Under the pieces are notes generated by a model, which searched no databases, was not told the DNA's origin, and saw only the letters and a list, made by a program, of their open reading frames with translations. From Welwitschia mirabilis (Eukaryota), in the NCBI GenBank assembly GCA_051453625.1, contig JBOZIK010000001.1, forward strand, positions 46,943,482 to 47,007,481: a stretch of 64,000 nt of DNA, in the 5' to 3' direction. Positions 18,318 through 64,000 of the stretch are shown piece by piece. Position 1 is the first letter of the stretch. Every line of letters starts with the position of its first letter. The translations under genes were made by a program, and so were the position numbers.

Positions 18318-19143
18318 ATCAAAATNNNNNNNNNNNNNNNNNNNNNNNNNNNNNNNNNNNNNNNNNNNNNNNNNNNNNNNNNNNNNNNNNNNNNNNNNNN
18401 NNNNNNNNNNNNNNNNNNNNNNNNNNNNNNNNNNNNNNNNNNNNNNNNNNNNNNNNNNNNNNNNNNNNNNNNNNNNNNNNNNNNNNNNNNNNNNNNNNNN
18501 NNNNNNNNNNNNNNNNNNNNNNNNNNNNNNNNNNNNNNNNNNNNNNNNNNNNNNNNNNNNNNNNNNNNNNNNNNNNNNNNNNNNNNNNNNNNNNNNNNNN
18601 NNNNNNNNNNNNNNNNNNNNNNNNNNNNNNNNNNNNNNNNNNNNNNNNNNNNNNNNNNNNNNNNNNNNNNNNNNNNNNNNNNNNNNNNNNNNNNNNNNNN
18701 NNNNNNNNNNNNNNNNNNNNNNNNNNNNNNNNNNNNNNNNNNNNNNNNNNNNNNNNNNNNNNNNNNNNNNNNNNNNNNNNNNNNNNNNNNNNNNNNNNNN
18801 NNNNNNNNNNNNNNNNNNNNNNNNNNNNNNNNNNNNNNNNNNNNNNNNNNNNNNNNNNNNNNNNNNNNNNNNNNNNNNNNNNNNNNNNNNNNNNNNNNNN
18901 NNNNNNNNNNNNNNNNNNNNNNNNNNNNNNNNNNNNNNNNNNNNNNNNNNNNNNNNNNNNNNNNNNNNNNNNNNNNNNNNNNNNNNNNNNNNNNNNNNNN
19001 NNNNNNNNNNNNNNNNNNNNNNNNNNNNNNNNNNNNNNNNNNNNNNNNNNNNNNNNNNNNNNNNNNNNNNNNNNNNNNNNNNNNNNNNNNNNNNNNNNNN
19101 NNNNNNNNNNNNNNNNNNNNNNNNNNNNNNNNNNNNNNNNNNN

Positions 19144-37949: not shown

Positions 37950-40900
37950 GATAATATTTGGCTATAATAATCAGTCTAATCTAAGTCAAAATGTTTAATA
38001 CAACAAATGGTGTGACTGATATTTTAGCTTAAGAATCCTCTGTTGATCTTAGTTGCTCATGCTTTCTAATAGTATTTCAACTTAAACAGAACATAAAGTT
38101 TTATAATAGTATTCAATATAATGTTCCAACTGTCTAGTTTTAATAACATAACTAACTTCTTGTTACAAAGGGAAAATTCTCTATTTTCGTGGATCAGTAT
38201 TCGAACTATAATAACAAGTTGAAGATCCAAATATAAAAAAATTGATTAACTCTAATTGATAGACTATACTTGAAATTCTAAAATTTCTATTTAACAAAAA
38301 TTTACATTTAATCAACTAATTAAAGTAGTAAGATCATTATTGAAGTTTGTCAAATTAAATATGAATAGAAAAATGGATAGGATTTTCTAATTTTCTCTTT
38401 TAGAACTTTTTTTCTAGAATTAGATTCAAGATTTTCAATTATTTTATATAAATTTAAATCTTTTTTAGCTTGAGAACTAGGTTCTCAACTTGCTTTCCCA
38501 CTTCCTAATCTAATGGCATTCACATTTGTACATTCTTCTACTGGATTAGTTAATTTTAGATTAGCAGTAGATTGAGAAGGTAAACTAGGATAACTCTACT
38601 TTTTATTTTGTTATTGGAACATGAAATTAATAGCTTATTGTAATTGATCCATTTGATTAACTAATAACTTCATTGTTTCTTCTAATTTATTTTCTTATGG
38701 AGGAGAAAGAGGTAAAGATTTACATTTCCATTGAGATTGATTGTTATAAGGATGAATGAAATTATGATCAAAACTATTTGGATGTGGATTGAGATAATTA
38801 TTGAATGGCATAGAATCATGATAAGTATGATTAAAGGCATGATCTTCAAAAAGATGATGATGCTATAAAGCACTTTGAGTTGCCTTAAATCTTTTACAAA
38901 ATTTAATGAAATGACCCTCTACTTAACCTAACTCATAAAAAGATGAACTTGAAGAAGATTGAATTGGAATTTTTTTTAAGCTTTTCTTGTTCTAATTTAA
39001 GATTCTAAGTTAATAGAACTTCCATTTTCTTTACTAATTCATCATCAGATTTATCTTTATGAAAAAGTTCATTCAAGCTAAACTTATTTCTAATGTGGTC
39101 ATTATCAACATTTTTCCACCTTTGAATTACTTTTACTAAATCTTCTACTTCTTTTCAAGCCTCATCACGAGTAGAACTTAATAAATCTATAGTAGTTAAT
39201 GTTGTTACTAACTTTCTAGTTTCCTTATTAAAACCTTCTAGTAAAAATCAAGCTAATCTTCACACTTCAAAATAATAATTAAGATTTTAATTAGAAGTTC
39301 TCTAAAATACTCAAAAACTTAAAAATAAGATTCAATTGAAGATTTATTGGAACTACTAATAAGCTTTCTCATTTGATTAATGTGAGTAGTAGGAAGAAAT
39401 TTCTTAATAAAAGCTTTTGTAAAGTTTTCAAGATTTGAAAGATACTCATTATGATTAACAACCTAATCTAATGTCTAGCTCTATCTTTTAAGAGAAGAGG
39501 AAGAATTGCTAATTTGGCTTCATCAGAATAATCTTGAGGAGTTATCTTGCAAACTAAGTCAAATTCTTCCAAAAACCTCATAAGCATCCTCATGATCTAA
39601 ACCATGAAAAGTAGGAAAATCCTTAAGATTTTTTGATAGAAATTAAAGTATCATGGATAAAAGAGATAGAAGAGTTGGTTTAATGATCTTAAAAAGGCTA
39701 ATCAAAAGTAGGTTGAAGATTAAAAGTATGAGCATTACTATCTTTGATGGCCATTTAAGAAGAAAGAGTATTTGAAGCTTCAGCAAAGGTATTAAATTTA
39801 AGTAGAGGTGGTATCAAAGCTAGATCTGGAATACGAGGTGACAAGGGTTTAGAACAATGCAAACACTTACCACTACGGATGCAATTTCTACTCATAAATG
39901 CATGGTATAGAAAGGAAAAAGAGATGCATAGGAAAATAATGAGAATTAACATGCGTACCTCAATGGATTAAGGGAGTAATGTAGTGCTTATGCGCTCATG
40001 CATGTAATTGTAAAATTAAAAGCAACAAAAAATAGTCAACTTCCATTAGTATATGTAAATTCTCAATATATATATATATATATATAAAATATTTCACATA
40101 AAAATAACAAGTTATGCTCAGCAATGGCGGTAATTTTGAACGAAGGAAAAACTCAATTTTTAAAATGAGGAGGTCATGTTGTAAGTCTTCGCAAAACTAA
40201 ATGTGTGCTTAACAATGATAATTTAACTCAAGAAAACAAAATTAAGTATAAAAAGTTTAAATTAAATCATAATTAAATCTCCAGGGTCGAATTGCATATA
40301 TAGTGGAACCATATGAGTATAGAACTAATGAAACAATTGACATAAATTTATATAAAAATATTAATTTTGCGTTATAAAATTACTACTTCATATGATAATA
40401 CAGCTATTTCTCTTAGGTGACATACAACTAATTAAACACACATGATATAAAATAACCATAAAAATTTACATGGGTAAAAGCATAATTCCATAAGATGTGA
40501 AAAGGAAAATACAATACAATAAAATGAATTAATGTTTTATAAACATTCACAAGATTCTAAAGTTCATTTGCAACTCATACAAATAAGCAAGAGAATTTAA
40601 GTAGTCAAATATACTAAAGTCATTTTTAAGACAAAAATAATTTTCTTTGAAAAACTTACTGCTCGAATTCATATCATTTGGATGTAATTAGGTAATTCAA
40701 ACATCTCATTCCATTCTATGTAAAATTTGTAACAACTTAGAATCAAAAGATTATGCTTAAAAAGCTATATTCCTTAAATCAATATAGCTAACAATTCAAC
40801 TTTAATAAGATTTTCACTAAATTATGATACATTTGACTTGAAAAATAACTCTTTATTTAAGAAAAATGAATTATAAAAGCATTGAAACATCTAATTTAGG

Positions 40901-43654
40901 TTTCAAATCAATAGGTAATTGATAAAAACTAGAATAATAATGTTCATTAAATCAAAGTAAGACCTATTTAATTTCAAGCTATTTTAACTAATAGAAAGAA
41001 AAGAAATGAAGAAGAAAGAGAAAAGGAAGAGAGAAAATTTAGAAGAATGGACTTAGAAAAGTTTAGCACCTTTAAAATACTCAGAATATATCATAAAATA
41101 AGTTTTTAAAACTGAATATTCAATATTAAGTAGAATCAATTACAACTGAAAAAATAGTTTATCTAAAAAAACTCAACAAATTGCAGTCAATCTTACTTTA
41201 ACCAAGAATAATAAGCAAATTTTAAAAGTTGCAAAAGTATGAATTTCATATTTAGCAAGTAGTAAAAGCAAACTACAAGATGAAAGCTTGAATTTCTAAA
41301 AACACATTAAAAATGACTAAGAAATTCACTAAGCAAAATTTAAAAAATAAGATCTAATAGTTTAGAAAGTTTTCTAACTGCAACTAAGACTAAAAAAGGC
41401 CAAAAAATGGGTTTTATAGGTTGAATTTGGGTTCTAACTCCTTCAGGAAAAAAGTTTCAAAATCATAAGAGGAAGCTACTGACAAATTTACAGAGCCATT
41501 GGGGTTGCAGAAAAAAGATATTGCCAAAATAAAAACTAAAATTAACTATTCTACTTTTAGTTTGAGAAAGCAAAAAGAAGAATTCATGCATAAATAAGAA
41601 ATTTGGTTGTTATATAAATATAAAAGAAATATTTACAAATCAATCTATTATTATTAAAAAGAAGAAAATAGAAATTCACCATTTACTGCCTTAGAAAAAA
41701 GGTGGAATCATGAGAAATGTACTAGAAAATGAAAAGAATGGAGGAATGAAGGGAGAACAAGTACNNNNNNNNNNNNNNNNNNNNNNNNNNNNNNNNNNNN
41801 NNNNNNNNNNNNNNNNNNNNNNNNNNNNNNNNNNNNNNNNNNNNNNNNNNNNNNNNNNNNNNNNNNNNNNNNNNNNNNNNNNNNNNNNNNNNNNNNNNNN
41901 NNNNNNNNNNNNNNNNNNNNNNNNNNNNNNNNNNNNNNNNNNNNNNNNNNNNNNNNNNNNNNNNNNNNNNNNNNNNNNNNNNNNNNNNNNNNNNNNNNNN
42001 NNNNNNNNNNNNNNNNNNNNNNNNNNNNNNNNNNNNNNNNNNNNNNNNNNNNNNNNNNNNNNNNNNNNNNNNNNNNNNNNNNNNNNNNNNNNNNNNNNNN
42101 NNNNNNNNNNNNNNNNNNNNNNNNNNNNNNNNNNNNNNNNNNNNNNNNNNNNNNNNNNNNNNNNNNNNNNNNNNNNNNNNNNNNNNNNNNNNNNNNNNNN
42201 NNNNNNNNNNNNNNNNNNNNNNNNNNNNNNNNNNNNNNNNNNNNNNNNNNNNNNNNNNNNNNNNNNNNNNNNNNNNNNNNNNNNNNNNNNNNNNNNNNNN
42301 NNNNNNNNNNNNNNNNNNNNNNNNNNNNNNNNNNNNNNNNNNNNNNNNNNNNNNNNNNNNNNNNNNNNNNNNNNNNNNNNNNNNNNGTGGAATCATGAGA
42401 AATGTACTAGAAAATGAAAAGAATGGAGGAAAGAAGAGAGAAGAAGAACAAAACACATGATTTATTTTGACAAGGAGTGATCAAACATGCAAAATTTCAG
42501 ATTTCTATGATAGATACTAATTGTTTGACAATCTAATTAGCACTAATAATGCTACAGGCCATAAAAAGTCTAACTAAATTGAAAGAAAATCATGATATAC
42601 ATGCATAAGTCAAGTACTTAAAAGCATGAAAAACATAAAGAAAAGAACATTTATTAACTTTAGATGAATGCACAATCCTTTTCATTAGTCTTTCATCCAA
42701 GTTCTTAAAATATTTGATGCCTTCGCCTCCTCCTACACCTCCTGATCACGTACACTTCACCACCCCTGCAATGCCCTCTAATGAATGAAATGGTAGAAAA
42801 TATGATGAAAAATAAAATATAAAAGGGTCTAAGAGGATAAAAATGGATTTAGATGACAGTAAAATATGTGAATGAAAAATGTAAAAGGTTTCCAAAGTTG
42901 ATATAGAGAGAAGATCAACTTGGAAATGAAGAAAAATGAGAGAAAATTCATAGAAAATCTTCTTCCAATGCTTAATAATGGTAAAATTGGCATAAAAATG
43001 GCACAATAATGATATGATATGAGTTTGAACACTAAGAGGAGGCCAATTCACATGTGTTTTATGATACAAAAGGAAAAACTGTTATATGGTACTACAGTGT
43101 ATTTTACTTTTGGAATTGGTACTAGAGTGCCATAGGTAGTTTTACAAATAGCTACCAAAAGTTCCAAAATAAACTTAATATAAATATATGTTTGAAGACT
43201 TACAATACATGACTTCATCACATTAAACTAAAAAATTACTATAAATGTATAAATTATAGCTTCTAGAATGTAACTTCCAAGGTAATACTGTTATGAAAAG
43301 CTCTAATGTCATTTAATGTCATGTATATAGTGTTAAAATAAGTCAGAATCGCCGCATCAGTAAAATGATCATATATGATAATGGAAAAAGGACTAGGAAT
43401 CATCCATCGAGCTTCTACATTAAAGTAGTCTTTCATGATTTACATTTTCATCCTTGATCTCAATCTCTTAATTCCAAGCATTACAAACAACCTCGAATTG
43501 GATCATAATGCATTGTTTTGAGCTCATTAAATGTCTAAGGTCCCTGTCACCTAAAAAGTGTAAAAATACCTCTAAATTTAGTATTAAAGTATAAAACATG
43601 ATGTAAAATATTAACTATTGATACCTTATGTTGTTAAAATTTTAGGCTTCATCA
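37950..43654 (-). mobile_element. 5' half of an Athila element (LTR 40137-43654, PBS, gag); pol not seen
   Basis: PBS TGCTCAGCAATGGCGGTA (40115-40132); LTR TG(AACG)...TTCATCA containing CAGGGTCGAA; gag downstream on the minus strand. Confidence 0.75.
38450..39900 (-). pseudogene. gag: Athila gag, decayed
   Basis: DFPTFHGLDHEDAY, FLEEFDLVCK, LPLLLKDRARH, and C-terminal LPSQSTAN...VNAIRLGSGK (cf. Athila LPSQ..NP..AITLRSG). Confidence 0.85.
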
Positions 43655-45925: not shown

Positions 45926-47148
45926 CTAATGCACAGCAGGCTCAGGTGCAGGTGGAGAAGAAGGAGGGTGCTTAAGATCTGTAGGGAAATGATGGTCAAA
46001 TTATGTCATAATGGAGTGTACTATCTTATCTTCTTGTACTCTAATTACCTCTAAGAAGTTCACTGTCACATTGTGCTTGATACATGATATGTGCTAACAC
46101 ACATGAATCAACAGCTCCTCAGTGTGCTATCCTCTCCTCTTAACCGTGAAGATCCTTTACTCAAGTATGGTGATACATCAATCTATTGTCGCTCTAATGC
46201 TTTATGTCATCTCTAATAGAAGAGCCTAAATCTACTCAAAAATGATGTCAACCACAGATCTCTATACCTAAACTCTCTCTACCTCTCCTAACATCTGAAT
46301 TCTTATGTCCTATAGGTAACGAGTTAAAGTTTAAATATGTGTAAGTCTCTGCTCACCCATAGGCTTAGGTATATTGAAGCATCTAAACATGGATAAGAGG
46401 AGACAAGGACATCCTAGAGTCTATAGCTATCGTGCCTCGATCATACTCCTGAATCTCCTTCAAATAAAGGTCAGTAGATCCATCTGCTCCTCTGCTTGAA
46501 TAATGCTAACATTTGGAGGTGTACTATCATAACATGACTATCATGAAATAATAGACTGATGTTACAAATTAGTTCTCTATGAATAATCCAATAGCCAGAC
46601 AATAACTGTGTCACCAAAACTCCCTGCCTATCAATAGTCAAGTTAGCTGGAATATCTAAAACTGCACTATAACTACAGCTCTCCTTTATAATACTATCTA
46701 AATGGGTATGTGTACTCTTGATACCATTTAGATTAGTAATAGCATTAATATGATTTAGGAGAATCATTATCTCATGGCCAGAAATGATAGCTACAATCAT
46801 ATCAACAACTTGGTTATGAACATCAAAACACCTTTCTATGTATATGGTATTGTAAAACTCTCTAGACTAAGAGATGTAATAAGCCTCCTTTACATCTATG
46901 ATCTACTAGAGTTATAGATCTATCAACCTTTGATACACCTCTGCCTTTAGATGACTCATGAAGTCCTAAAAATGTCTCTCTACATGAATAGTAGCTATCT
47001 GAATCGAGAGAGACCTAGCCTCACGAGGTGAAGGGTGGACTGACTCTATCCACTAAACCTCCAGTGGTGTCAATGGTCTCATTTCTTGCTCTACTACCTT
47101 ATCTTCTACCTTAGCCTAATTTGCTATATGTGTATGTGGCCTAATCAT
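45926..47148 (-). pseudogene. Athila env-like ORF, decayed
   Basis: Same strand as pol, between IN and the 3' LTR; SREFYNT motif (cf. LVREFY.N), ORF-track piece 46471-46800, Pro-rich end HPPSSPPAPEPAVH*. Confidence 0.75.
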
Positions 47149-48029
47149 TTATAAATATGAAATGCATCATGCAAGGTTAAGTGGAGATAGCTAAAATGTG
47201 TCCCATGGAAGCTCGAAATGATCCCATAAATTGGTTTTTAATGTGTAAAAATCATAAAAATATGTCTTCCCCTCTTAAAAGTATCAATACATCCTGTATT
47301 ACCTACTCATGTGAAGAAAAATGCAAAACATGAGAAAAAGTTGAAATGCATAAAAGTGGTGGACCCCACATAACGTCAAAAATGAAAGTTCTTAAATCAA
47401 AAATCTAATTTAGTAGAATTATAGAGATTGTCATATTGATCAATTTACCCTAAAGGACCACTACATTGTGACTTATTATTTTTGAGAAAATAAGATTTAA
47501 AATTAAAAACCTAATTCCACCTTATAAAACATACAATTCAAGATATCTCACAAAATACATAGTGAAAATCAGATTCATAAGTACCAAATTGAAGATTATG
47601 AAAAATTGAATGGTATAGACAAGAACTACATGCTAAAAGCTCAAAAATAGAAGAAAAAAGTCAAAAATAATGAGGGAAAGAAAAATATTCCTCATTTTTC
47701 AAAATTCATTAAAAGTTTGTAATCTGAAATACTAATCTAGTGGGGGAAACTTTCAAGACATTAGTAAGTATAAAAGTAACTATTCTCTCTTAGAGGAAAA
47801 GATGAAAATAATAGAGAAATGAAAAAAATGAAGGAAAAAAATAGCCTATTTTTATCACATTATCATCTAGTTGCATCGTCTAGACAATAGCCCTAGTATG
47901 ACTCTCAGAAAAATCTTAGCTATTGTCCTCCATGTTGTTTAGACAACCATGTGGATGATAAGACTTTGAAAAGTTTTAGAATAATGAAAATATTAGTTGA
48001 ACAAGTTAGGCTCAGATATCAGCGTGACA

Positions 48030-51000
48030 AGATTAAGTTAATGAGAAGTACAATAAGAGTTATAACACACATCAATAAGTAAAACACAAATTTTTCCGTA
48101 CATAATTTTATAAGGTAAAAAACCAAGAGAATTATGCCAAGTAGTATGGTAAGTCTAAAGAACATCGTTAAGCTCAGAAGCACAAGATTTCTTATTAACA
48201 AAAATAAGTTTTTGCAACATTTTCTTAATTTCGCTGTTTGCATTTTCAGCTTATCCATTAGTCTAAGGATGATAAGCATAAGCTACTCTATGTTCTATTC
48301 CAATGGACAAAAGAAGTTTTCTAAAAAGTTGACTAATAAAATAAGTTTTTTTAGTCACTAATAATAATCTTAGGAAAATCAAATATCTAAAAAATATGAG
48401 TTTTAAGAAAATGAGGCATCATTCAAAGAAATAGGAATAGCTTTAGCCCATTTAATAATATAATCTATAGCCACTAAAAATGTAATGTTTATCATGAAAA
48501 GGTGGGTCAACAATGCCTATAAAATTAATACCCTAACAATCAAAAGGTTCACATTTAATAATAGATCTAAGAATCATCTCCTAAGCATGAATAAAGCTAT
48601 CATAACACTGACAATAATAACACCTTCTGACAAAATCAAAAGAATCCTAAAAAAGGGTAGATCAATAATAACCAGAATGAAGAATTTTCATAGCTATTTT
48701 TATCCATTAAAATGACCTCCACAAATACCACCATGATAAAGATGAAAGATTTTAAATTTTTCTCAATCAGGCATACATTTTCGCATAACTTGGTCTTTAC
48801 ATTTACAATATAAATGAGGCTCTATTCACTCATAGTCACCTATTCTATGTAGAAAATATTTGCATTGATTATAATTCTAATGTTATGATGTTTTTGTTAT
48901 AACAAGGTAATTAACAATATCCACATACCAAGGAGGATGATGAGTAGAAGATATAACAAAAAGTTACTCATCCGAAAAAGAATTATTAATGAAAGAATCA
49001 TTAAGAGGAGAAGAAAGACAAGACAAATAATCAGCAACATAATTATGCTTCCTTGCTTTATTGATGATGGTCGAACTAAATTCTTACATGAGGAGGATCA
49101 ATCTAATCAATCTAGAACTAGAATCTTTTTTAGTCATAAGGTAACAAATAGCAACATGATTAGTATAAACATTTGTATGACATTTGTATGAAAGCTTTAA
49201 AGATAATCTCTAAATGTATCAAGGCAAAAGATGATTGCTAACATTTCCTTCTCTGTAGTAGTGTAATTTATTTAAGTTCTAGACAGAGTTTTGCTATGGA
49301 AAGATATAACTTTAAAATCATTTTCATATTTTTGATAAAGTACCTGATCCATGACAAAATTACTAGCATCACATATCAATTCAAAATCTTTCTCTCAATC
49401 AGGTCACATTACAATAGAAGCATAAGAAAGTTTATGTTTAAGTCTATCAAAAGAAAGCTGACAAGATTCATTCTATTTAAATTTAGATTTTTTTTATAGT
49501 AACAAGTGAAGGGGTTTACAAATGTTTGCATAATTATGAATAAATCAATGATAAAAACCATAATAACCAAGAAAAAATCTAACCTATTTTACATTAGTTG
49601 GAGAATTTAGGTTTTGAATAATATCAACCTTTTTAGGGCCCATCCTAATCCCATTTTTGAAATATGATGAACTAAAACAATTTCACTTTCAACTAAAAAT
49701 AATTTTTTTAAACTCAAATGTAGGCCACTAGAAATGCATCTATCAAGGAATTTCTCTAATATTTCTAAGATTTATTCAAAAGTTTCAGCATAAATAGATA
49801 AGTGATCCATAAAAATTTCTATCAAATCCTCTAATATATTAGAAAAAATATCCATCATAGGATGCTGAAAAGTACCAGAAGCATTACAAAGTCCAAAAGA
49901 CATGCATCTAAAAGCAAAACTACCAAAAGGTAAAGTAAAAATAGTTTTAGCTTGGTCTTCACTAGCAATACAAACCTAATTGTAACCACTATATATGTCA
50001 AGAAAACAATAAAATGTATATCCCTAAATCCTATTAAGTATCTGATCAAGAAAAGTCAAGGATAGTGATCTTTTTTGGTTTCTTTATTTAATTTTCTAAA
50101 ATCTATACACACCCTCCATTTCCCACCTCTCTTAGATGCTAATTTCAAAGGAATAACCCACTCACTATTAGCTATGACATAAATGATTTCAACATCCATT
50201 AATTTTATGATTTCATCTTTAACAACTTGCTTAAGCACTAGATTAAGTCTATCTTGGGGTTGCCTAATAGGTTTTGCATTATCCTCAAGGTAGATTTTAT
50301 GTTGAATAATTGAGGTAGGAATGACTGTCAAATCTTTATGGGACTAAGAAAATGCATTTACCTTAGATTGAAAAAGAGAGATTAAGCTCGATTCTTGTTA
50401 AGGGAAAAGATTTTCATTAATGATCAAAGGTTTGTTTAGATCATTGTATAGAAAGATGTATTTCAGTTCACTAAGTAAAGATTTCATATTTAGATTTTTA
50501 TTTTTTGTTAAATTTTTAGGAAAATCCATTATTGTCTCAAGTTGTCGTCTGGATGTTAATAGTGGACGACCACTCTTAAAATAAGAAATCTCAATTTTGC
50601 TTAGATCTCGGACTTCTACATAGTTCACAGACTCAGTTTTTTTACTCTACAGATCAAAATAATCAAATTCTAAATAGTCAAAATCAAGTTGATCTACATT
50701 GAAAATGTTTAAGTTGTCTACTTATAGTTGATCATCAAACAAAGTTGGTTTGTGAAGGATTGACCATCTTTTTTCAAGTGGATGGTGCTGTAAAAATAAA
50801 GTTGGTTTCATTTCTTCTTTCACACTCAAATCATTACCTAAATATTTTTTAGCCGTATCAAACACCCTTATTAAAGACTTCTTATTTCCTAAATAACACT
50901 CCATAAAACCTGTTATTGTATCTATAATACACTAGGTTATTACATTAAAATCTCTACTTATAAGTAAAAGATAACCACCGTTATGTTCAACTACTATCAT

Positions 51001-51212
51001 AACTACATCAATAGGGTAAAATTCTTCCTCAATATGAATGAATAAATCCTTAATTATGCCTTAGGATTTCTTAATAGATGTATCTGCCAATTCTACGACA
51101 ATCCTTGTAGGCTCTATTCTATTTTCCAATCTAAGTAATTGAAAAATGTGCAAGGGCATAATGTTGATACTAGTTCAAATATTAATTAAGGATTTCTTAA
51201 TCTGTCTATCTT
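48030..51212 (-). pseudogene. pol: Athila pol (PR C-terminal part, RT, RH, IN), decayed
   Basis: QHKIYLEDNAKPIRQPQ, WRVCIDFRKLNKETKKDHYP, FGLCNASGTFQ, IEIFMDH, YTTTEKEMLAIIF, PWYVDIVNYL, HGGICGGHF. Confidence 0.92.
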
Positions 51213-51628
51213 TGTAATGTTCCATTTTACTATTTTTCAATTACTTTGTATAAAATAGAAAATTTAAAATAATATGCCAAGATCCATATGAATAACAAGG
51301 AACAATTTAAAGAGAATAAGTATTTAATTATTAATAGCAGCAGATTACATTCTACATCATTAGCAAATAGCCTTGGACTAGTGGTTATGGGTAAAGACAT
51401 GAATTATGATCTTACTCCCCCTCCAGGTATCCTTGGGGATCAGTCAAGATTGTCATTGGTTATATCCACCTAGTATATCCACCCCACCTAATGCTATAGG
51501 CTTAAATTACATAATGAAGGAACACATCTTTTCATATTTAGGTCACATCCATTCACATATGTTGTTAATTATGCTTAATTAGCACTTAACACACTTAATT
51601 ATATAATTAATGATTTTGGAACATTACA
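51213..51628 (-). repeat. 3' LTR (416 bp)
   Basis: TGTAATGTTCCA...TGGAACATTACA inverted termini; PPT complement TTCCCTCTTTTC follows. Confidence 0.95.
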
Positions 51629-51809
51629 TTCCCTCTTTTCTAGAAATCATGTTCATCCTTGAGAACAGTCTCTCCTCAACTTACATCATTTCTGAATCCA
51701 TGCTCCTCAGAGTTATTTTCTGTATCATCTACAAAACATAATAGAAAAGAACATATATCATTTATTTAATAGTTACATTGATAATGCAACAAAAAATGGT
51801 AGATCAGGC

Positions 51810-54800
51810 TTAATTAAAAAGTTTGGAAAAGGTCTCTTACGTGTACTCCCTGTTTTCTTATGTTTTTTAATCATAATGGATCCATTAAATAAGTACTTCT
51901 TTTATACTCTTATTTCTTAGTTGCCTGGATCTGGTACTTAGGATGTTTTCTAGCTAGAGGGCAAAAGTCAAATTGGATTTGAGCATGATATGTTACCAGT
52001 TCAAGATGTAGTCCTAGTTTCTATCTTAATGGTATGGTTTCATTATGCGCACATAAAAAACTGGATGTATTTGGGACATTTGTGGAGGAAGCTCTAGTTT
52101 GTATGCTAGATTCCCAATCTTTTCAATAATCTTAAATGGACTATAGAACTGTGGTACTAATTTCTGTACTTTCCCATTTTCAAGGAGTTTCTTTTTGGCT
52201 TGATTCTTAGTAGTACTTGTTCACCTATTTGGAATATGCAGGACTGGTGCTTCTAATCGTAATATTTCTTATATCTATGTTTTGCTACCTGTAGCTATCT
52301 TTTTATTTTATTTATTACTTCCTCCATCATCTTTAATTCTAAAGGCGCTATATTTTCTGATCTTTGTGAAGGATCTAACCATGTGATAGGGGTAGAATAG
52401 TTTTTACCATACATTGCTTTGAAGGGTAAATAGCAAATGGAAGTCTAAAGCGTTTGGTTATAAGTACAATTTGCCAAATATAGGTAGTTATCCCATTGTT
52501 TGGGCCTTCCTGCCACATGATACCTTAGAGTTTCTTCTAGTATATGATTTATTCTTTCTATTTGATCATTTATTTCTGGGTGATATATAGTACTAAAACT
52601 GAGTTTGGTACCTAAGTGGTGGAAGAAGCTTTACCAAAACTCAGAGAAGAACTTTCGATTTCGATCAAGTACTATAACCTATAGTGCATAATGTAATCTA
52701 AAGACTTCCTGTATAAAATGAAGGGCTAGCTCTTCTACTATATTAGTACTTTAAACTATGATAAAATGAACGATCTTGATTAACATGTCTACATAAATGA
52801 AAATTGCATCATGTTGTTTGTTAGTAAGGGGTAAATCGGTGATGAAGTCCATAGAAATCTCTTTCCATTTCCATTGTGGTATTCCCAATGGCTGAAGGAG
52901 ACCAATGGGTCTTCCTTAATCGATCTTCATCTACTAACATATAGAATAATTACAGATGTATTACTTTAAATCTACTTTCATTCTAGGCAAAAAGTAGGAT
53001 TTCTATAATTGGTGGTAGTCTCTGACAAATTCTGGATGTCTTGCATATGTAACTTGATGTAGTTTAGACATTAGCTTTCTTCTCCATGGACCTAATGGAA
53101 TGTATAGTCATCTTCTTTTTAGAAGGAATCCATTCTATGAGATCAGGTATATCTCTATTTCTTTTTCTTCTTGGACCTATTGATATATGTCTTTGAAGTG
53201 TGGATCATCAATCAAGGATGTTTTGAGAAAGGTGGATAAGTCAGATGTAACTATGATAGCTAACATACATTACATCTTGTTCAAAGCATTTTCTACTTTG
53301 TTTTCTTTACCAAGGTGTGTTATAACTTGAAGTCGTATTCTACTAGTAACTTACTCCATCTTCTCTGCCGCATATTTAAAATGGGTTAATTCTAGAAATC
53401 CTATCTAAGCTTTTATGATCTATTTTAAAAAGGAATTTGCTTCCCACAAGATAGTGCCTCTAAACTTTCAAGGCATGCACTATGACTAACAATTTCAAAT
53501 CATGTACGAGATAGTTTTCTCATGTTAGTTCAATTTCTGTCATTCATATGCAATCACCTAATCATCTTAGCTAAGTATGACCCCTATTCCTCAAGTGGAA
53601 GCATCTATGGTGACTGTAAATGATTTGTTTATATCTATAATATTAAGGTCCTGTGATGTTATAAGTAGCAACTTTAATCTAAGAAATGCCTCCTTGCATT
53701 TGTCATCTAATTGAAATATATTTGTTGCTTTGGTTAAGTTTTTTAATAGTGCTGCAAGTTGAGAAAATCCTAAAACAAATTTTTAATAGAAGCTAGTCAA
53801 TCCTAAGAAAATTTGTACTTGAGTGACATCCTTTAATTTTAGCCATTTCCTTATGACTTCTACTTTAGTCAGATCTATTGTTATTCCTCTACTAGAGATG
53901 ATATGTCCTAAATAAGTGATTTCTATTTAAAAGAATTCACATTTGCTTAATTTTAGTTTAAATTTATACCTGGACAAGACCTGTAGAACTTTCTTCAAAT
54001 GTGTCACATGATCATCATGGTTTTTAGAATATATTAGAATATCATCTAAAAATACAACCACAAATTTATCCAAGTAAGGTCGAAAAACAGCATTCATTAA
54101 AATCATAAAAATGGCTGTAGTATTTGTTAAACGAAAAGGCATTACTATAAACTTGTAATGTCCATATCTTGTTTTGAAAGCAGTCTTATAGACATATTCA
54201 TCCTTGATGTGATTTGATGGTAGCTAGATTTTAAATTGATCTTTGAAAAGTACTTGGATCCTTGTAGTTGATCCAATAGATCATCGATTCATGGTAGTGA
54301 GTATCTATTCTTGATGTTTACTTTGTTGAGTTATCTGTAGTTAATTTAAAGCTACAAGGTATCATCCTTCTTTTTAATAAAAAATATTTGTGCCCCCATG
54401 ATAATACACTAGGGTACATCTTTCCTTCCAACAATAGCTATTCGATTTATAACTTTAGTTCTCTTAGTTCTACTACTGAGAAATGATAGGATGCTCTGGC
54501 TATTGACTGTGCTCTAGGGATTAAATCAATTGCATGCTATACTTTTTTCTTGGGCGGTGGTATTTTTGAATCTTCAAATACATCTGAGAATTCTTTTAGT
54601 TCTTCTAGTATAGAGTAATCTTCCTTATGATCTTCTGTCAGTACTAGAGCAATAAACACTTGTTTATTTTTGACAATTTTTGTGATTTGTTTAGGTGATG
54701 TTAAATATATCTTCTTACTCTTTCCCTCCCCTTTAAAGATTCATTTTCTGAATGAAGGAGATAGTTTCAAGGTTCTTTAGTGAAAGTTAATCTAAACATT

Positions 54801-56260
54801 ATATTTAATTAAGAAAGGGATTCCTAAAATGACATGGTATTCTCTAATTTGAAAGACATAAAACTTATCTCTAAGGTGTAAATCATGAATGGTAAAGTGA
54901 TAAGGGCAGCAATCCCGTCTTATGTAAGAATACTATCCCCCTACAACTCCTATGGTAAACTCTTGTTCTTGAAACAGGTGATATTTAATTTGTAAAATAA
55001 AGATGTTGAAATGAAATTCTGTGATGCACTACTATTAACGAGGAATAAAATAGAAAAATATAAAATATAACTACATAATTCTAAGATGGAGTGTTGATTA
55101 TGAATTGTACCTATTTGAATGATAGCATAGACTCTTTTGAATGGCATGGACTGACTTTAAAGAGCTTGAGGCTGATTGTGCTGAGGAACATTTGGTGGTT
55201 GTGCTTTGGATGGACAGTTCCTGGTAATTGGACCTCTCATGTGGCACTCATGGCAAGTAAGATTAGTTCTATATGGCTTTCTTGCTGGTGGTGTGATTGA
55301 AGGAGGGTGCCTATCTCCTTAGTATAGTTGATCTATCCATCTATTTTCTTATCCTTGGAGATAGTGCCTTATTTTTTAATATGCATCTTCTATGGACTTG
55401 ATTTCCAAAGTGCATAGAATGCTTTAAAGTTTGAGTGACAATGTTTCAATAAAACTGTTAATAAGCTACTTCTCTATAAAATTCTTTTGGTACTCCATGA
55501 GGCACTGGAATTTATATCAATGTTCATCTAATGGGTGTTTACCCCAGCGTGGGCACTAAAACTCCACCATTTAATCTTCAATAAAATCTTCTAAAATGAA
55601 CTTCTTTTAAATTCTTCAGTGAAGGTATCCCATGATATCCTACATGAGTGTTTCTATTGATATCTGAACCACCATTCCTGTGTGTTTATGATACCATATA
55701 CATCTATCTTTTTAGAGGTATATTTTGAAGTTCGAAATAATTCTCCAATTTTTGGATCTAAGATATGGCTTCCTCACTTATTCTAGCCTTGCCTTCAAAG
55801 GTCTTTAAGTGTATCATCTTTGCAATTTCCTCTCTTTCACATTGTTTAATATTGGGATGGTTAGATCTATTTGTCAGGAAAACTTAAAGGTTGGCCTATG
55901 TATTTAATAATCTTATTTGAATGTTTTGGATGTCAATATCAGCTGTAAGAATATGCTATCCTGATGTAGATGATGGTTCTTGAGATGCCCTCGGATTGTG
56001 TTCTATAGGTCTTTTTTCTAGGCGAGAAAGAAGGCTATTAGTCCTACTAGTTAGATGTTCATTTTGAGAGTGGATATGATTAATTTGGCCTTCTAGTGAC
56101 TCAATTTGCTCATTGACCCTATGTTTCATGATGTGCTAGTGGGTTCAATGTCCTCTTGAACTCATACACCTCTGCCTTATTCTATAAGTATTCTCTCTCT
56201 GCCTTTTCTCCTTTAGTGGTAATGTGTTTTTTTAGTATTGTTGGTGGTAGTTAGGGACTT
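51810..56260 (-). pseudogene. Chromovirus gag-pol with C-terminal chromodomain, decayed
   Basis: [52 protein letters not shown] and FYSPFKIIEKIGNLAYKLELP; chromodomain RQLRNKSIKEVLI*W...T*E. gag start approximate. Confidence 0.92.
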
Positions 56261-56397
56261 GTAACCACCTAGTAGTTAAGAAAATAGTTAGAGAAAACAA
56301 TTTCTAGCAGTTATCATAAGAACCTTGCTAACATGAATAACAACTACCAAAGAGAATCTATGCGTTGCTAGGCATCCAAGGATGGCATCATAAATCC

Positions 56398-57045
56398 AAG
56401 TGTGACATTGGACACCTGTGTGTACTAAGTGCGACATCAGACATCCAAGTGCAACGTCAGAGGTTTTAGAAGGATTTTGGGTCTTATGGAGTAACACTGA
56501 GGAGTGACAATGCATCTAGGATATGAGTGTGACATTGGACATCCAAGTACAATGTTGGGCTCCTAAGTGTGATGTTAGGCCATCAAGTGTGATGTCAAAG
56601 CCTATTGTACCGATGAACGAACAAAAGAGATGATGGTAGATTTTAGGTCTACGAGTGGTAAGTGCAATCTCATGCATCCAAGTACAATGTGGAACACCCA
56701 AGTGAGACATCGGGGTTCTTTAAGTAGGTGAGTAGAATAGGTGATGTTTGTGAAAAAATGGTAAAATCTAGGCCTATGAAGAATAAGTGCGATGTCTGTC
56801 ACCCAAGTGCGACATCAAGCTTTAAAGGGCTTCGAAATATGATGTTGAATTTGGCAAGACCAAGTATGACATTGGCCTTCAAAGTGTGACATTGACCATT
56901 AAAGTGCGACATCGATATTCTAGGAGTACGACATCGGCATTCTAAAAGTACAATGTTGGCTCTGAAGTATGACATTAACCATCTGAGAATGTGACATCAA
57001 CCTCTAAAGTGAGACATTGACCATCTAGAAGTATGATGTTGGGTT
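56398..57045. repeat. Array of ~20-bp degenerate repeats (consensus ~AAGTGCGACRTCGG.CATCC, roughly 20 copies)
   Basis: E.g. AAGTGTGACATTGGACACC, AAGTGCGACATCAGACATCC, AAGTACAATGTTGG, AAGTGTGATGTTAGG. Confidence 0.9.
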
Positions 57046-57624
57046 TCAGTCCACTATAATTCAGGGCCTTAATCTATTCATGGTTAACTAGAGTTTTTTG
57101 CATTTAACTAAGATTTAGTTAACTATAGTTAACTCTTATTTTAGGTTAGGTTAAACCTTGGTCCACCACTATAAATAGCTCCATGATCCCCTTATTTTTT
57201 ACTTCTTTTATTACATGCCTCTATAATCAAATTGGTAGCTCTTTCATTTATTATTTCAATTATCTATTTCTTTGATACTTTTATTTTCTTCTTTTCTTTT
57301 ATTTTAATATTTTCCTTTTTCTTGTTTCTTATATAGGCCCTTCCACAACCTTCTTTTGCCTATAAATACGAGTTCCCTCTAGCATTTGTAGATGTACTTC
57401 TTCCTCTGGATTCTAGACTTTGCCTTACCATTTCTTAAAATTATACTAGTGTCAGATCTACAGAGTTAGAAATACAGCAATGCACTTAGGAACAAGGATT
57501 CTCTTGGATCTTTTCCTCTAATATATTAGATCTATATGGCTTTCCATCTTTCTATCTTTGTCATCATACTATTCTTTTCATCCTGGATTTCTTTTACTCT
57601 TCTTTTAATCTACACACTACTACC

Positions 57625-60536
57625 ATGATCCATTCTCATCATCATCTAATTCAGATTTTGGAAGAGAGCATTCAACTAGTCTTTGAGATGAGTAAAGGTA
57701 ATCATGTTCCTCCTAAAGTTTTTCATTGTGATGAGGACTTTTATTATTTCTTAGTTAATCACTTGGATGATTTTGTATGTGTGTAGGAGATGAATACCCA
57801 CTGCCATGAGATCTCTATTGCTAATTTTACCACTCCATATTTTGCAGCTTCTGGGGAGCTAATTGCTGGTAGAGCCTTTCTTCATGATCAGGTGAATGAG
57901 ATTCCTACTTATATAATTTACTTATTCCCCTTTATAACTAGTGGAGTTTTTTGAGATTGGGCCTCCGTTGTCTATTCTTCCAGCCTTTCCAAGTTAACCC
58001 ACTTGAAGAGGAATGGAGATAGGAAGAAGTGTTTATATGGCCATGTCTTAATAGGTTTATATTTTACTTCTATGGATCGAAGGGATCTACAGCAATTTAG
58101 GGCTATTTATAAAGATTCCTCCTTTGTTTTGTCTCTTCATAAGATCCTTGCTTGATCTTTATTACATTCTCGTTCTTTCTTATCTATGTAGGTAAAGGTT
58201 CTGGGAGTTATGAATTTGGAGAAACATCTCAGGGTACTTTTCCTATTCTATCTGAGATATGAGTTTTACTGAGGAATCTTGCTATTAAGTATATTTATGA
58301 TAACTCTGACTTTTTCATTATTTGATATTTGTAGATAAGGAAGAATTCAAGATCTGGTGCCTCTTCCTGCCAGAAACATGATAAAGCTCCAATAAATTAC
58401 CTTATGCCTATGGAACTAGAAAAGGAAGAGGATGCACCCCTTAGCTTTTCTCGGTGACACTGGCCCTGTGGGGTATTACCTATTACCATCTCTTCTTTTT
58501 NNNNNNNNNNNNNNNNNNNNNNNNNNNNNNNNNNNNNNNNNNNNNNNNNNNNNNNNNNNNNNNNNNNNNNNNNNNNNNNNNNNNNNNNNNNNNNNNNNNN
58601 NNNNNNNNNNNNNNNNNNNNNNNNNNNNNNNNNNNNNNNNNNNNNNNNNNNNNNNNNNNNNNNNNNNNNNNNNNNNNNNNNNNNNNNNNNNNNNNNNNNN
58701 NNNNNNNNNNNNNNNNNNNNNNNNNNNNNNNNNNNNNNNNNNNNNNNNNNNNNNNNNNNNNNNNNNNNNNNNNNNNNNNNNNNNNNNNNNNNNNNNNNNN
58801 NNNNNNNNNNNNNNNNNNNNNNNNNNNNNNNNNNNNNNNNNNNNNNNNNNNNNNNNNNNNNNNNNNNNNNNNNNNNNNNNNNNNNNNNNNNNNNNNNNNN
58901 NNNNNNNNNNNNNNNNNNNNNNNNNNNNNNNNNNNNNNNNNNNNNNNNNNNNNNNNNNNNNNNNNNNNNNNNNNNNNNNNNNNNNNNNNNNNNNNNNNNN
59001 NNNNNNNNNNNNNNNNNNNNNNNNNNNNNNNNNNNNNNNNNNNNNNNNNNNNNNNNNNNNNNNNNNNNNNNNNNNNNNNNNNNNNNNNNNNNNNNNNNNN
59101 NNNNNNNNNNNNNNNNNNNNNNNNNNNNNNNNNNNNNNNNNNNNNNNNNNNNNNNNNNNNNNNNNNNNNNNNNNNNNNNNNNNNNNNNNNNNNNNNNNNN
59201 NNNNNNNNNNNNNNNNNNNNNNNNNNNNNNNNNNNNNNNNNNNNNNNNNNNNNNNNNNNNNNNNNNNNNNNNNNNNNNNNNNNNNNNTCGGTGACACTGG
59301 CCCTGTGGGGTATTACCTATTACCATCTCTTCTTTTCCTTTATTTTCTCCTCTTTTTTTTTGACATAGGTTTTTTCTTGTTTTATTATAGGTTCTTCGCA
59401 TAGAGACTTTGGTCAAGGAGGATATGGACTTTACTACCTCTGGAGAAGACTTTCCTTTGACAGCTAAGGAAGGAGTGCATTACTGTAAGTGAAACTTTTC
59501 CTTCTGTTCCTTCGACTAGCCTCTTCATGGATTTATTATTCCCTTTTAATTCTCAAGTGGAAGAGGTACTTAATAATTTTAATACCTTAATGTATTAGGA
59601 GGATATTTCCTATTCCACCTCCTATTTTCAGCCTCCAGGTCAAAGTCCTCTTGTTGCTTACCCTTCTCTAGAGCCTTTTCGCCACTTGCCTGTAGCTCCA
59701 CAATCCATTGTAAATGAATAGGACCAAGTATCTTATTGCACCAATCAACTTCTGTCAGTGGTGGAGATCTTGTACCCTAAGGTTAAGGAGTTGATGGATC
59801 CGTTAGAGGATTATCAGTCCTTTTTCAGCCTTTTTCATACATAAGTCCTGCATCCTTCACACCTAGATGATGTCTACATCCATCATTGATCCAAGCCAGC
59901 AAATGTATCATAGCACTTTAAGTACAACCATTTTACTCATTTCACTTCCCATTATTCTTTATAGCATAAATGAACTACTTCATCTAAGATTTCTACAACA
60001 TGGTTTATATGATGGAGTCATTTTACTGCATGGCTCATCATAGAATTGAAGCGCGGAAGTCCATGAGTAGTTAGCTCCAGATGTTGAAGAATGAGGTGGA
60101 AAACATTCGTTTATCAGAGAAGAGATCATGGGTAGATGCTTTACATATAGCTACTATAGAAGAAATTTAGGCTACCTTATCTACTCAGCTGATAGAGAGT
60201 GAAAGGATAATTCAAGCTTATGAGGATTGTTTGGCCATTACTATTGACGACATCAATGTGTTATATCATGGCAAAGAGCTCTTGAAGGAACATCTGTTAG
60301 GGACTTTAGTTAATTATAGTAAGCTTTATATGAAGCTCTATAAGTGGTCATATTCCATTACTAGGGTAGATTCTATACCGACTTCTTCTTCAGTTGAAAT
60401 CAATACTACAGCAGTTCCTACATAGCCTACTGAGATGAAAGTAGTTTCAGGAGACATGAAGCCTCTTATCCCAGGCGTGAAGGGTCACAACCCTGTTACC
60501 TTCTCTATGGAGGATCTCCTTCCTCCTCAGCAGTGA
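57625..60536 (+). pseudogene. Decayed antisense extra ORF of the chromovirus, possibly spliced; unknown product
   Basis: Long single-frame stretches with few stops: 57625-~58156 (2 internal stops) and 60012-60536 (3 internal stops, all TAG). TATAAATA at ~57170 and 57361. Confidence 0.65.
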
Positions 60537-60705
60537 TGATTGGTTTTTCTTGTCAAGGTATCATGCACCTTATTTTCACTAACACCTTATTTTCTTTAAT
60601 CATCATGTTATTATTCTTTGATGCATTGTTTGGACTTTGGCTATTTAATTTATAAACTGAGTTCTTTCCTTGTTTTTCTCAAGTAGTGGATTACTACTTG
60701 TTATT

Positions 60706-60718
60706 GGCTTTGATACCA
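60706..60718 (-). promoter_or_regulatory. PBS (tRNA-iMet)
   Basis: GGCTTTGATACCA, i.e. TGGTATCAAAGCC on the minus strand, 2 nt from the 5' LTR. Confidence 0.9.
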
Positions 60719-60720
60719 AA

Positions 60721-61139
60721 TGTAATGTTCCATTTTACTAATTTTAGATTACTTTACATAAAAAGGAACATTTAAAATAATATAATAAGATTCATAGGAA
60801 TAACAAGGAATAATTTAAAGAAAATAAGGCTTTTACTATTTATAGCAGTAGATTACATTCCACATCATTAGCAAGCAGCTTTGGACCAGTAGTTATAGGT
60901 AAATATGTGGACTACGACTTTAGTCCCTCTCCTAGGCTCTTTTGAAGATTAACCAAGGTTATCATCGATTACATCCACCTAGTCTATCCAAATCCACCTA
61001 ATACCGTAGGCTTATATTATATAATGAAGAGACACATCTTTCCATATTTGGGTCACACCCATTTATATCTCTTGTTAACCATGCTCAGTTAGCGCTTAAC
61101 ACACTTGATTATACAATTATAAAATTTTGGAATATTATA
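60721..61139 (-). repeat. 5' LTR (419 bp)
   Basis: Colinear with 51213-51628, roughly 80% identical by eye. Confidence 0.95.
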
Positions 61140-63070
61140 ATTTCCTTCTAAATTGACACTAACAATTATTGCCCCCGGATCTTTAAACTTTAGACATTTC
61201 TGTAAAACTAAGTTATTAATGGATTGAACTACGAACACTTTATTAGGGATGGTTCATTTTTGTTTCCTCCTAATCAAGTCTTTCCACAACTTAGAATACT
61301 TAGAGTTCTCTTGTAAAAGTTTCTAAAATTATAAATAGATACTCACATTTTACATTAAGGTTTTTAAATGTTCATCAAAGGTAGGATTTGTGTTTAATTT
61401 ATTAAGCCAAGGGGTAGCAGATTTCTTATAAGAAGAACTTTTCTTTTTTTTGCTTAAAGGATAAGGAAAAGAATGATTTTTCAAAATTTCTATATCCTCT
61501 TATTCATTATTTTTATCACTTTGAGATGTTGAAGCCTTTAGGTTGGGTAAAGATTGAGTGGTAAGTGACCCTTATGGTATTTGATTAGTAAGCATGGGTT
61601 GTTACAAAATACTCACAATATTTTCAATGTTGAATTTTGTTCTTTCTTGTGTTTTTTTCAATTCATCAATGGAACTTCTAAGTGGATCAACTTGGTTTTG
61701 TGAGTTGGATGCTTACTTGATTATTTAAGTTGTTTGATTGAAAATTTATGTTTTAAAATCTCTTTTTAAATGGTTGAAAATTAGGATGATTTATTTGAAA
61801 ATTTTTGAAGTTGGATTATCTATTCATCCTAAGTTGAAAATTATTGTAATTTTAAATTTGATTTTGGTTTTGGTTTTCATTAAAGTTTGAAGATCTTTGA
61901 TTGAAAGAACACACTTCTTCATAAATTATTTCTTTATATTTTGACAATAAAGGACACTCTTTCATAACATGATAGGTGTCTTAATGTAAATCACAAGTTA
62001 GAGCTACAACTACACTCTTCTCTATTGTTACCTTTGCATCTAAAATCATCTAAGTGTATTTTTATAAAGTTGAGGTGAGATTCTTAATGACATTTTTTGT
62101 TTCATTTACAGTTATTATTTCTTTATTTTTGGCTTAACCTCTTTAAGATCTTTAATGATTTAACCTATAGTTTAATCTTCTCTAAATGAGGTAACTCACT
62201 TTCAGTAACTCTTTCAACACTTTTTAAGCATTTTATAAAGTAAGATTCAATAAATTTCCTTTACACGAAAAATCAACTAGCTGCTTAGTTTGATTGTTGA
62301 GTCCACTATAAAAGTAGTCTACCAATTCTTTTTGAGAAAAATCATCTACAAGGTTCAAATGTAAAGCAACAAAAAATCTCTCATAGATAAAGGCATAATC
62401 TTCATTAATCTATTGTTGGAAGTTGGTTATTTCTTTCTTACATTTTCTAATGTTAGTTTCACTTATGAATATCTTAATAAAATCTTTTTAAACTAACTCC
62501 ATGATTTTAAACTCTTATAAGGAACCATTCTTAACCAAATTTTATCTTTACATTTTAAAGTGATGGGAAAAATAACTATGTAAGTTAGATCACTTATGCT
62601 TTTCTTACCATTTTTTAGAGTAAGCACTAACTGTTTGATGCCGACAATTGTTGTAAAGGGTCTTTATCATGTTCACCACTATAAATGGAATAAACATTTA
62701 GGTTTATAAGTTCGATACCATTAACAGGAGGTAAATCAAAAGGAGTTTGAATTTCACATTTTTTTTATTAGCAACTAGTTCTCTAAGAGTGATATTTGCG
62801 TTAGGGTTTATAGGTGTAGTCATAGGAGTTCCAATAACAATGAAGGGATTAGGCAAAGTGACTTGATTTTACTTTTGCAATGAGCTAGACGTATTTAAAA
62901 ATTGAAAAATATCATTGAAATAATCTTCTAAAAAGTTTTCTTTCACAAAATTAGATTTTAAAGATATAAATGTAGAAACTTCTGGAATTTTTAAAACTTA
63001 CATATATTTGGTGTGCATTCCTTAGTTAAATTTGAAGTTAATTAAACCTTCTTAGATGTTTTCCTCTATG
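61140..63070 (-). pseudogene. gag: Athila gag and N-terminal protease, decayed
   Basis: KFKDPGAIIVSVNLEG adjoins the insertion; LYSKYSKLWK (cf. PSYAKFLK); gag core with FPITLKCKDKIW and IPFIVVNMIKTL. Confidence 0.8.
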
Positions 63071-63564
63071 AACAGCTACTCTCTAATATTTTTCTTTCTT
63101 ACTATATTTTATCATGTCCCAGCATACTCAGTTTTGATGCTTAATGTATCATCCCTATAGTTATTTGAATGATAGTCTGGATGATAGAAACATAGAAAAT
63201 ACCAAAAACAAATTTTAAAAAACATAGAAAACAGAAATGTAAAATGATAGATATAAGAAATACAGAAAGTAGAAGATCGTCCATCTGTTTCATCTAAATG
63301 AAAGAGGAGATGATAAAAAAACCCTAAAAATTTTAAGAAAGTGATAAACTAAAAAAACTCAAGGCATAAAGCCCATCAACATTGCACGTCATCTAGATGA
63401 TGAAGCAGATGATAAAGTATTTATTTTGAAATGTAAAGACAGAAACTATGAAAAGAAAAACCTATGCCATTGTAACTAAAAATATAGCATTGCTACAAGT
63501 AAATATCTAAACTGGAATCCAAACACTTACCTGAATAATAACAACTCTCAAGCTTCAAGCAGCA

Positions 63565-63583
63565 TTCCCCAATAACGATGTCA
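63565..63583 (-). promoter_or_regulatory. Athila-type PBS (decayed)
   Basis: TTCCCCAATAACGATGTCA vs TTCCCCGGCAACGGCGCCA, just before TGATG at 63589. Confidence 0.8.
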
Positions 63584-63588
63584 AGATA

Positions 63589-64000
63589 TGATGTATATTT
63601 GTGCAAATAATTATGCTTGAGAAGATCCTGTCATTCACAAATAAAATAGATATTCTACACAACATAATACACTAATATAGATGGGAGTGAACTTGAATGT
63701 TGTAATCCATTGAAGGCCGAGGCTAGAAGAAAGAGAATTAATTTTAACAAGAAACACTTACATATTCTAGCAATAAAAATAAATTGCAATATATAAAATC
63801 ATAATGCAATACAATTATGCAAAGTTAATCTAGGAAAGAAAAGAAATAATGCACCTAAACTAAAAATGCTCAACCTTAATAAAAGTTGCCCTCATAACCT
63901 ATATCTCTTAAGAAACTGTCAGTAAATTGGAAGCAATATAAACTATGACAGATAAGTAACAAAAAGCAAAAAAAATGAAAAAGAGTTCATTGTATTGATC
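63589..64000 (-). repeat. 5' LTR, family A (partial)
   Basis: Homologous to 9314-9800, 17017-17500 and 44180-44640. Confidence 0.88.

Follow-up and report, generated by a model that had tools for sequence, protein, structure and literature searches.

A possible antisense accessory gene in the 5' leader of a chromovirus-type Ty3/gypsy retrotransposon family of Welwitschia mirabilis

Results

The element and its termini

A stretch of 64,000 nucleotides of the Welwitschia mirabilis genome (GenBank assembly GCA_051453625.1, contig JBOZIK010000001.1, positions 46,943,482 to 47,007,481 of the forward strand), here called the window and used for all coordinates below, carries a copy, old and dead, of an abundant Ty3/gypsy retrotransposon of the chromovirus type. 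The element lies on the minus strand between two long terminal repeats (LTRs) of about 417 bp each. The long interval between its primer binding site (PBS) and gag, here called the leader, carries three blocks of plus-strand reading frame, antisense to gag-pol, which may be the remains of an accessory gene. The landmarks of the element outside the leader are as follows.

60721-61139, minus strand: 5' LTR (419 bp), beginning with TG and carrying a sense-strand CTATAAATA at 60845-60837
60706-60718, minus strand: PBS-like site TGGTATCAAAGCC, an exact match, 2 bases downstream of the 5' LTR
51629-56129, minus strand: decayed gag-pol with many stops and frameshifts; the first methionine of the gag frame is at 56129
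51629-51641, minus strand: purine-rich tract resembling a polypurine tract, abutting the 3' LTR
51213-51628, minus strand: 3' LTR, from the alignment of the two LTRs

The two LTRs are about 80% identical (418-bp alignment against 51213-51626), and the insertion is therefore old. The 5-bp flanks of the whole element, ATCTT and ATTTC, match at 3 of 5 positions and are uninformative as a target-site duplication. The PBS-like site TGGTATCAAAGCC presumably pairs with the 3' end of initiator tRNA-Met.

Translation of the minus strand of 51627-56600, with stops read as X, gave Pfam matches to RVT_1 (E = 8.7e-20), RT_RNaseH_2 (5.6e-10), Integrase_H2C2 (3.4e-5) and SH3_Tf2-1 (9.3e-17), together with a weak match to the protease domain RVP_2 (E = 0.07). 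As these matches are scattered over different frames, gag-pol is broken by stops and frameshifts. The order RVT_1, RT_RNaseH_2, Integrase_H2C2 and SH3_Tf2-1, that of chromoviruses, was found on the minus strand between the LTRs, in company with the PBS and the purine-rich tract. No Pfam match to gag or to a Chromo domain was obtained from this copy. The C-terminus of the integrase aligned by BLASTP with the full-length relative P0061 (39% identity over 97 aa, E = 1e-22), and the alignment ended at residue 1504, within the Chromo domain of P0061 (1481-1528), such that the first half of this domain was aligned and the remainder was broken by stops. The assignment of the element to the chromoviruses thus has partial support from its sequence. 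The reverse transcriptase (RT) piece had 1009 relatives in the protein database, the best 120 listed of which were 38-54% identical, came from many plant groups and bore no clade labels.

Length and non-coding features of the leader

The features of the leader, in order from gag to the PBS, are listed below.

56383-57040, no strand: degenerate tandem array of about 650 bp with units of about 20 nt (AAGTGYGACATYG...), between gag and the TATA boxes
57169-57177 and 57360-57368, plus strand: TATA boxes CTATAAATA, flanking a T-rich low-complexity tract; candidate internal promoter
57625-58155, plus strand: block A, with an ATG start and 2 internal stops in 177 codons, within a low-stop region at 57187-58188
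58451-59336, no strand: assembly artefact, 787 N (58501-59287) between exact 49-bp copies at 58451-58499 and 59288-59336
59337-59403, plus strand: long AG-ended pyrimidine tract (T-rich repeat family D1), candidate 3' splice site
59599-59898, plus strand: block B, the Pro/Ser-rich middle, 3 stops in 100 codons, with a periodicity peak at about 59490-59790
59988-60536, plus strand: block C, with 3 internal stops, all TAG, and a TGA at 60534-60536; low-stop region 59988-60533

The distance from the PBS to gag is about 4.6 kb in assembly coordinates. In contigs of other copies of the element, from two DNA runs, 58491-58500 is followed by 59354-59405 after no more than 7-39 letters, so that the gap is a scaffolding artefact and the true leader measures about 3.7 kb. 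The initial annotation of this locus, made by a model from the letters alone, had set gag about 4.4 kb from the PBS; the PBS, the minus-strand gag-pol and the long leader were all borne out, while the length had to be reduced as the run of 787 N had been overlooked. The practical lesson is that a scaffold gap whose flanks are duplicated can make a leader appear longer than it is.

The window contains nine N runs, 3164 N in total, the others including those at 331-430, 13988-14087, 15001-15100, 18326-19143, 20435-20961, 21862-21961 and 34258-34267. A second duplicate-flanked gap occurs at 41702-42449, where 63 nt are repeated at 94% identity around 41765-42386. Such duplicate-flanked runs look like contig ends that overlap but stayed unmerged in scaffolding, and distances across them are therefore unreliable.

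The tandem array was defined by the rows of the tandem-repeat finder (TRF) at 56862-57030 and by the repeat families D2-D6. The motif CTATAAATA occurs 9 times in the window against 3.7 expected, a count reached by 1 of 100 shuffles, and T-rich repeats (57177-57334) fill the space between the two boxes in the leader. AG-ended pyrimidine tracts lie near 58190, 58335 and 59390, and the leader as a whole is rich in T on its plus strand (36% T). The array, the two plus-strand TATA boxes (at 57169 and 57360) and the pyrimidine tracts had all been pointed out in the initial annotation, and each was recovered where it had been placed.

The leader belongs to the family

DNA contigs from two data sets, X1 and X4, were aligned to the element at a likeness of at least 80%, and 46,206 (X1) and 41,080 (X4) contigs were placed. 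In X1 the summed word depth, which is not a copy number, was 242-1838 in every leader bin outside the N run, compared with 827-4148 over gag-pol. The lowest values in the leader fall in the repeat array (242-349 in X1, 359-433 in X4), where joints of length variants are located as well. Among the individual contigs, drawn from a list of 16 out of 90,481 records, diverged ones span the junction of leader and LTR (60414-60783, with 63 other letters, and 60544-60924) as well as that of gag and leader (55921-56319, 55964-56326 and 56024-56343), and further ones lie within the leader (57819-58184 and 59654-59958). The leader is a family-wide feature, not one private to this copy.

These data bear on the explanation that the interval is a nested insertion between the PBS and gag of this copy only, as might be suspected from its unusual length and from the abundance of nested retroelements in the window. 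The junctions at both ends are carried by the diverged contigs of other copies, which cover all but the N run, and analysis of repeats in the interval revealed neither LTRs nor terminal repeats nor a target duplication belonging to it. With contigs bridging both ends and depth across the whole leader, a private nested insertion is left with next to no probability. The initial annotation had held that a segment lacking in other copies, or one with its own termini, would speak for a separate insertion; the segment is present in other copies and no such termini were found.

One contig, from a run labelled organism B, matches 56568-56872 of the repeat array with 0 differences; judged from this identity, the two species labels probably denote very close relatives or the same material.

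Coding signal of the plus strand

The plus-strand frames and the Pro/Ser-rich middle described in the initial annotation are present, and all three internal stops of 60012-60533, a frame of 174 codons, are indeed TAG. Stop-to-stop open reading frames (ORFs) of 84-98 codons are unremarkable in such AT-rich DNA. Windows of 175 codons with at most 3 stops numbered 556 of 111,580 over the six frames of the 64 kb, and merged into 11 regions, two of which are the plus-strand frames of the leader (57187-58188 and 59988-60533). Three others are Pfam-confirmed pol pieces (27080-27727, 49412-49975 and 53570-54280), and one further region adjoins the RT of a neighbouring element. Three T-rich regions of low complexity (7999-8559, 29659-30189 and 42500-43174) matched no Pfam family and were used as non-coding controls. 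Since such non-coding T-rich stretches are also low in stops, low stop density alone is not decisive. The frames at 2105-2827 (plus strand) and 46327-46866 (minus strand) are likewise low in stops, and their translations, which look protein-like, match no Pfam family at E <= 0.01; the latter displays a mild codon periodicity (p = 0.025).

Codon-position composition was then the more telling measure. It departed from uniformity in block A (57625-58155; chi2 = 29.3, p = 5.3e-5), block B (59599-59898; chi2 = 26.5, p = 1.8e-4) and block C (60012-60533; chi2 = 33.4, p = 8.7e-6), with differences between G at the first and the second codon position (G1-G2) of +0.119, +0.18 and +0.155, respectively. 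In the pol pieces p ranged from 4e-8 to 0.017 and G1 was about twice G2; an excess of G1 over G2 is found in all three leader blocks too. The T-rich controls gave p = 0.32-0.53, and the T-rich head of the leader region (57187-57489) p = 0.21.

As the picking of stop-poor frames could by itself produce periodicity, 3 Mb of Markov sequence with the dinucleotide content of the leader was simulated, and the 321 windows with at most 3 stops were kept. Among these the median chi2 was 6.0 and the highest 23.3, so that none of the 321 reached the values observed in the blocks, and the observed G1-G2 was reached by 0.3%, 0% and 0% of them for blocks A, B and C, respectively.

A sliding scan located the signal at about 57480-57930, 59490-59790 and 59940-60540, and found none in the repeat array, in the T-rich tract or in the spacers at 57930-58380, 59337-59490 and 59790-59940. 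The peak in block A (chi2 = 36 at 57630-57929, with 1 stop) fades past a CAG|GTGAAT at 57891/57892. Block by block, G1-G2 was highest in the very frame that had the fewest stops (1-4 per 100 codons). Frames on the sense (minus) strand of the blocks contain 5-15 stops in every 100 codons and lack a corresponding excess of G1 over G2. There are no tandem repeats within the blocks. These observations point to a plus strand that was once coding in three blocks, at about 57625-57930, 59490-59790 and 59990-60536.

The same data weigh on the view that the leader is a long non-coding one, acting as RNA in packaging or regulation or through its repeat array, with frames that arose from T-rich composition and chance. 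The T content of the plus strand, the existence of T-rich low-stop frames elsewhere in the window and the plainly low-complexity first 300 nt of the region at 57187-58188 are what such a leader would lead one to expect, as is the failure, reported below, to find either a homologue or RNA support. The T-rich controls are aperiodic, however, whereas the three blocks are periodic; simulated windows did not attain the observed chi2 and at most 0.3% of them attained the observed G1-G2; and few stops coincide with G1 over G2 in one frame in all three blocks. A non-coding leader is therefore considered unlikely.

Relatives, structure and transcripts

Several results count against a once-coding gene. 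The periodicity statistic is imperfect, as the SH3 piece of the integrase, a true coding piece, has no periodicity (p = 0.41); lack of periodicity is therefore uninformative and its presence informative. The frames come from a letter-by-letter reading of one decayed copy only. Six-frame Pfam scans of the leader found no family and only sub-threshold coiled-coil noise (ERM_C, E = 0.016). No relative of block C was found in a set of 5.8 billion proteins at near and at longer lengths, and no true relative of block A among 1.84 billion representatives. The sequences of the PDB yielded nothing for block A and one chance match for block C (E = 0.37), while two scans of metagenome contigs and one of viral contigs gave no relative. 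In the ESM Atlas the uninterrupted 84-codon ORF had a best score of 0.76 with a recognition value of 1484, below the meaningful level. Structure prediction for block A was unusable (mean predicted local distance difference test, pLDDT, 35.9). Two RNA-seq runs bearing the same species label, of each of which about one quarter was used, yielded 106 and 64 reads; 96 and 60 of these had a likeness below 90%, and 96 and 59 overlapped the stretch in part only. Among the 15 joints listed of 2,339, none carried RNA reads, and no splice joint was seen.

The homology negatives are weak, because Pfam likewise failed to recognise gag and the chromodomain in this copy, and because the best listed relatives of the RT are only 38-54% identical, so that the protein database contains neither this family nor close relatives of it. 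Rapidly evolving accessory proteins would escape recognition at that distance. Likewise, the scarcity of RNA for an old dead copy says little about younger members of the family. For block C, structure prediction gave long helices over residues 2-116, the N-terminal two thirds of the block, with pLDDT values of 81-91 over residues 1-70 in one of five models.

Two candidates for the origin of the blocks were discarded. The protein P0001 aligned with block A (E = 1.4e-4) over seven weak stretches; it is a bacterial FN3-type repeat protein and the match is spurious. An inverted copy of gag or of other sequence of the window was sought by tblastn of five leader pieces against the window, which returned self-matches only. 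The initial annotation had also seen a loose likeness to Transposase_28 near 57940-58110. The fragments concerned lie in three frames of a stretch without periodicity, and Transposase_28 (PF04195) was not matched by the plus-strand frames at E up to 1, nor by shorter pieces at E up to 10; the likeness is not retained.

The lack of relatives also bears on another explanation, in which the blocks derive from a captured or nested fragment, be it the exons of a host gene or a poorly conserved ORF of another mobile element, that was inserted in reverse in the ancestral element and is carried passively without function. Such a passenger would account for the coding periodicity with no need of a function for the retrotransposon, and the arrangement of blocks and spacers with AG-ended pyrimidine tracts resembles genomic exons; transduction and nested insertion are both discussed as origins of additional ORFs (PMC7264820). 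Against it, no host-gene or transposon relative emerged from the Pfam, protein and PDB searches, and the segment is not bounded by termini or by inverted or direct repeats. Moreover, transduced sequences are usually in sense orientation and in few copies (PMC7264820), whereas the segment described here is antisense and abundant. A passively carried fragment is thus held to be rather improbable.

At 51644-51679, adjoining the 3' LTR, 12-21 reads in both RNA runs match about 35 nt and continue into unrelated sequence on both sides. These reads are taken to come from an expressed transcript elsewhere in the genome that shares this stretch.

Neighbouring elements

The 3' LTR is abutted by a second decayed Ty3/gypsy pol on the minus strand (47000-51212; RT_RNaseH_2, E = 2.4e-24; RVT_1, E = 1e-12), while beyond the 5' LTR (61140-64000) no Pfam match was obtained in the minus-strand frames, the only strand scanned. 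The studied element may be nested in an older neighbouring Ty3/gypsy element. Farther away, an integrase remnant of another retroelement is present on the minus strand at 27080-27727 (Integrase_H2C2, E = 2.1e-5; rve, E = 4.1e-5), and a second PBS-like site, TGGTATCAAAGCT, is found on the plus strand at 39809-39821 with 1 mismatch, which suggests another LTR element in plus orientation.

Discussion

The favoured reading of the leader is that of a family-borne, once-coding antisense accessory gene, to which we assign a probability of about 0.55. The initial annotation had proposed a 5' antisense accessory gene for this element; the family-wide leader and the coding signal of the plus strand lend this proposal partial support, whereas the Transposase_28 likeness and the length given for the leader have fallen away.

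Introns and poly(A) signals that lie opposite to the genomic RNA escape processing and so survive reverse transcription. The accessory gene would be transcribed divergently from an internal promoter in the TATA region (57169-57368), the gene being downstream of this T-rich region and the array of about 20-nt repeats upstream of it, beside gag. The spacers between the blocks would be introns; one candidate would join the GT of CAG|GTGAAT at 57892 to the AG at 59598, just before block B, a joint that is phase-compatible because both blocks start at positions 1 modulo 3. The antisense orientation would let these introns, and a poly(A) signal of the gene, pass unspliced through the RNA intermediate. 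The predicted product would have a Pro/Ser-rich middle between an N-terminal part and a C-terminal part that is helical, and could act in trans on the replication or the silencing of the family. By analogy with the Grande gene23 and Retand TRP28 proteins, the foremost guess is a regulatory function within the cycle of the element itself. Another possible action of the antisense transcript is as an RNA directed against the sense leader (compare PMC7264820). In the present copy the gene would be as dead as gag-pol.

The most specific form of this proposal, an intron-bearing accessory gene with its own promoter in the 5' leader of a chromovirus, head-to-head with gag, with the array as a shared regulatory region and convergent with the Retand/Grande and HBZ-type genes, is put forward tentatively and is more doubtful than the existence of the gene itself.

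Antisense additional ORFs are known between pol and the 3' LTR of Retand (ORF4), maize Grande (gene23) and rice RIRE2 (PMC7264820; available text of PMC11963269). The antisense gene of Grande has its own promoter, the gene23 product is nuclear, and database relatives of the proteins are few or absent; a role in the element's own replication or silencing has been proposed, not shown, for the Retand and Grande genes (PMC7264820; available text of PMC11963269). In Retand, according to the available text of PMC11963269, Transposase_28 is encoded by the antisense gene in 97% of the clusters. The element described here resembles the Retand/Tat type in having a coding signal antisense to gag-pol in the internal region with a tandem array nearby (56383-57040). 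It differs in that Retand/Tat elements are not chromoviruses and carry the gene 3' of pol, whereas here the features are those of a chromovirus and the blocks fall in the interval from the PBS (60706) to gag (56129). Unlike Retand TRP28, no match to PF04195 was found, with the limit that Pfam missed the gag and the chromodomain of this same copy.

Additional ORFs at the 5' end have been reported for Tekay elements, namely sunflower Tekay group 2, maize Tekay, sorghum Sb7 and rice Retrosat-2, and the ORF is described as conserved in the family, proline-rich or disordered, with few helices and no Pfam domain (available text of PMC11728184). The leader presented here is similar in that a putative extra coding region of a chromovirus is placed ahead of gag, on the side of the 5' LTR, and the segment is family-wide. 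The sunflower ORF is labelled ORF(+) in the part of PMC11728184 that is available, which we read as the sense strand; unlike it, the sense strand of the Welwitschia leader has no coding signal, and the antisense signal is spread over several blocks. The HBZ protein of human T-cell leukaemia virus 1 (HTLV-1) and APH-2 of HTLV-2 are antisense accessory proteins that have been proposed as analogues of the plant antisense ORFs (PMC7264820; available text of PMC11963269). Their genes occupy the 3' end, and the 3' LTR drives their transcription, as opposed to the 5' leader blocks found here, and no sequence relationship is expected.

Full-text searches of the literature found no chromovirus described as having an antisense ORF at its 5' end; the supplementary tables of PMC11728184 and PMC11963269 could list such cases. 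If the gene is real, the combination of its position at the 5' end of a chromovirus with its antisense, multi-block layout is probably new.

The additional genes of plant LTR retrotransposons are known and poorly understood. Should the segment be a captured host fragment, it would represent a reverse-oriented gene capture by an LTR element, which is unusual (PMC7264820). If the antisense accessory gene is true, an opposite-strand accessory gene would have arisen more than once in these elements, and at either end of an element.

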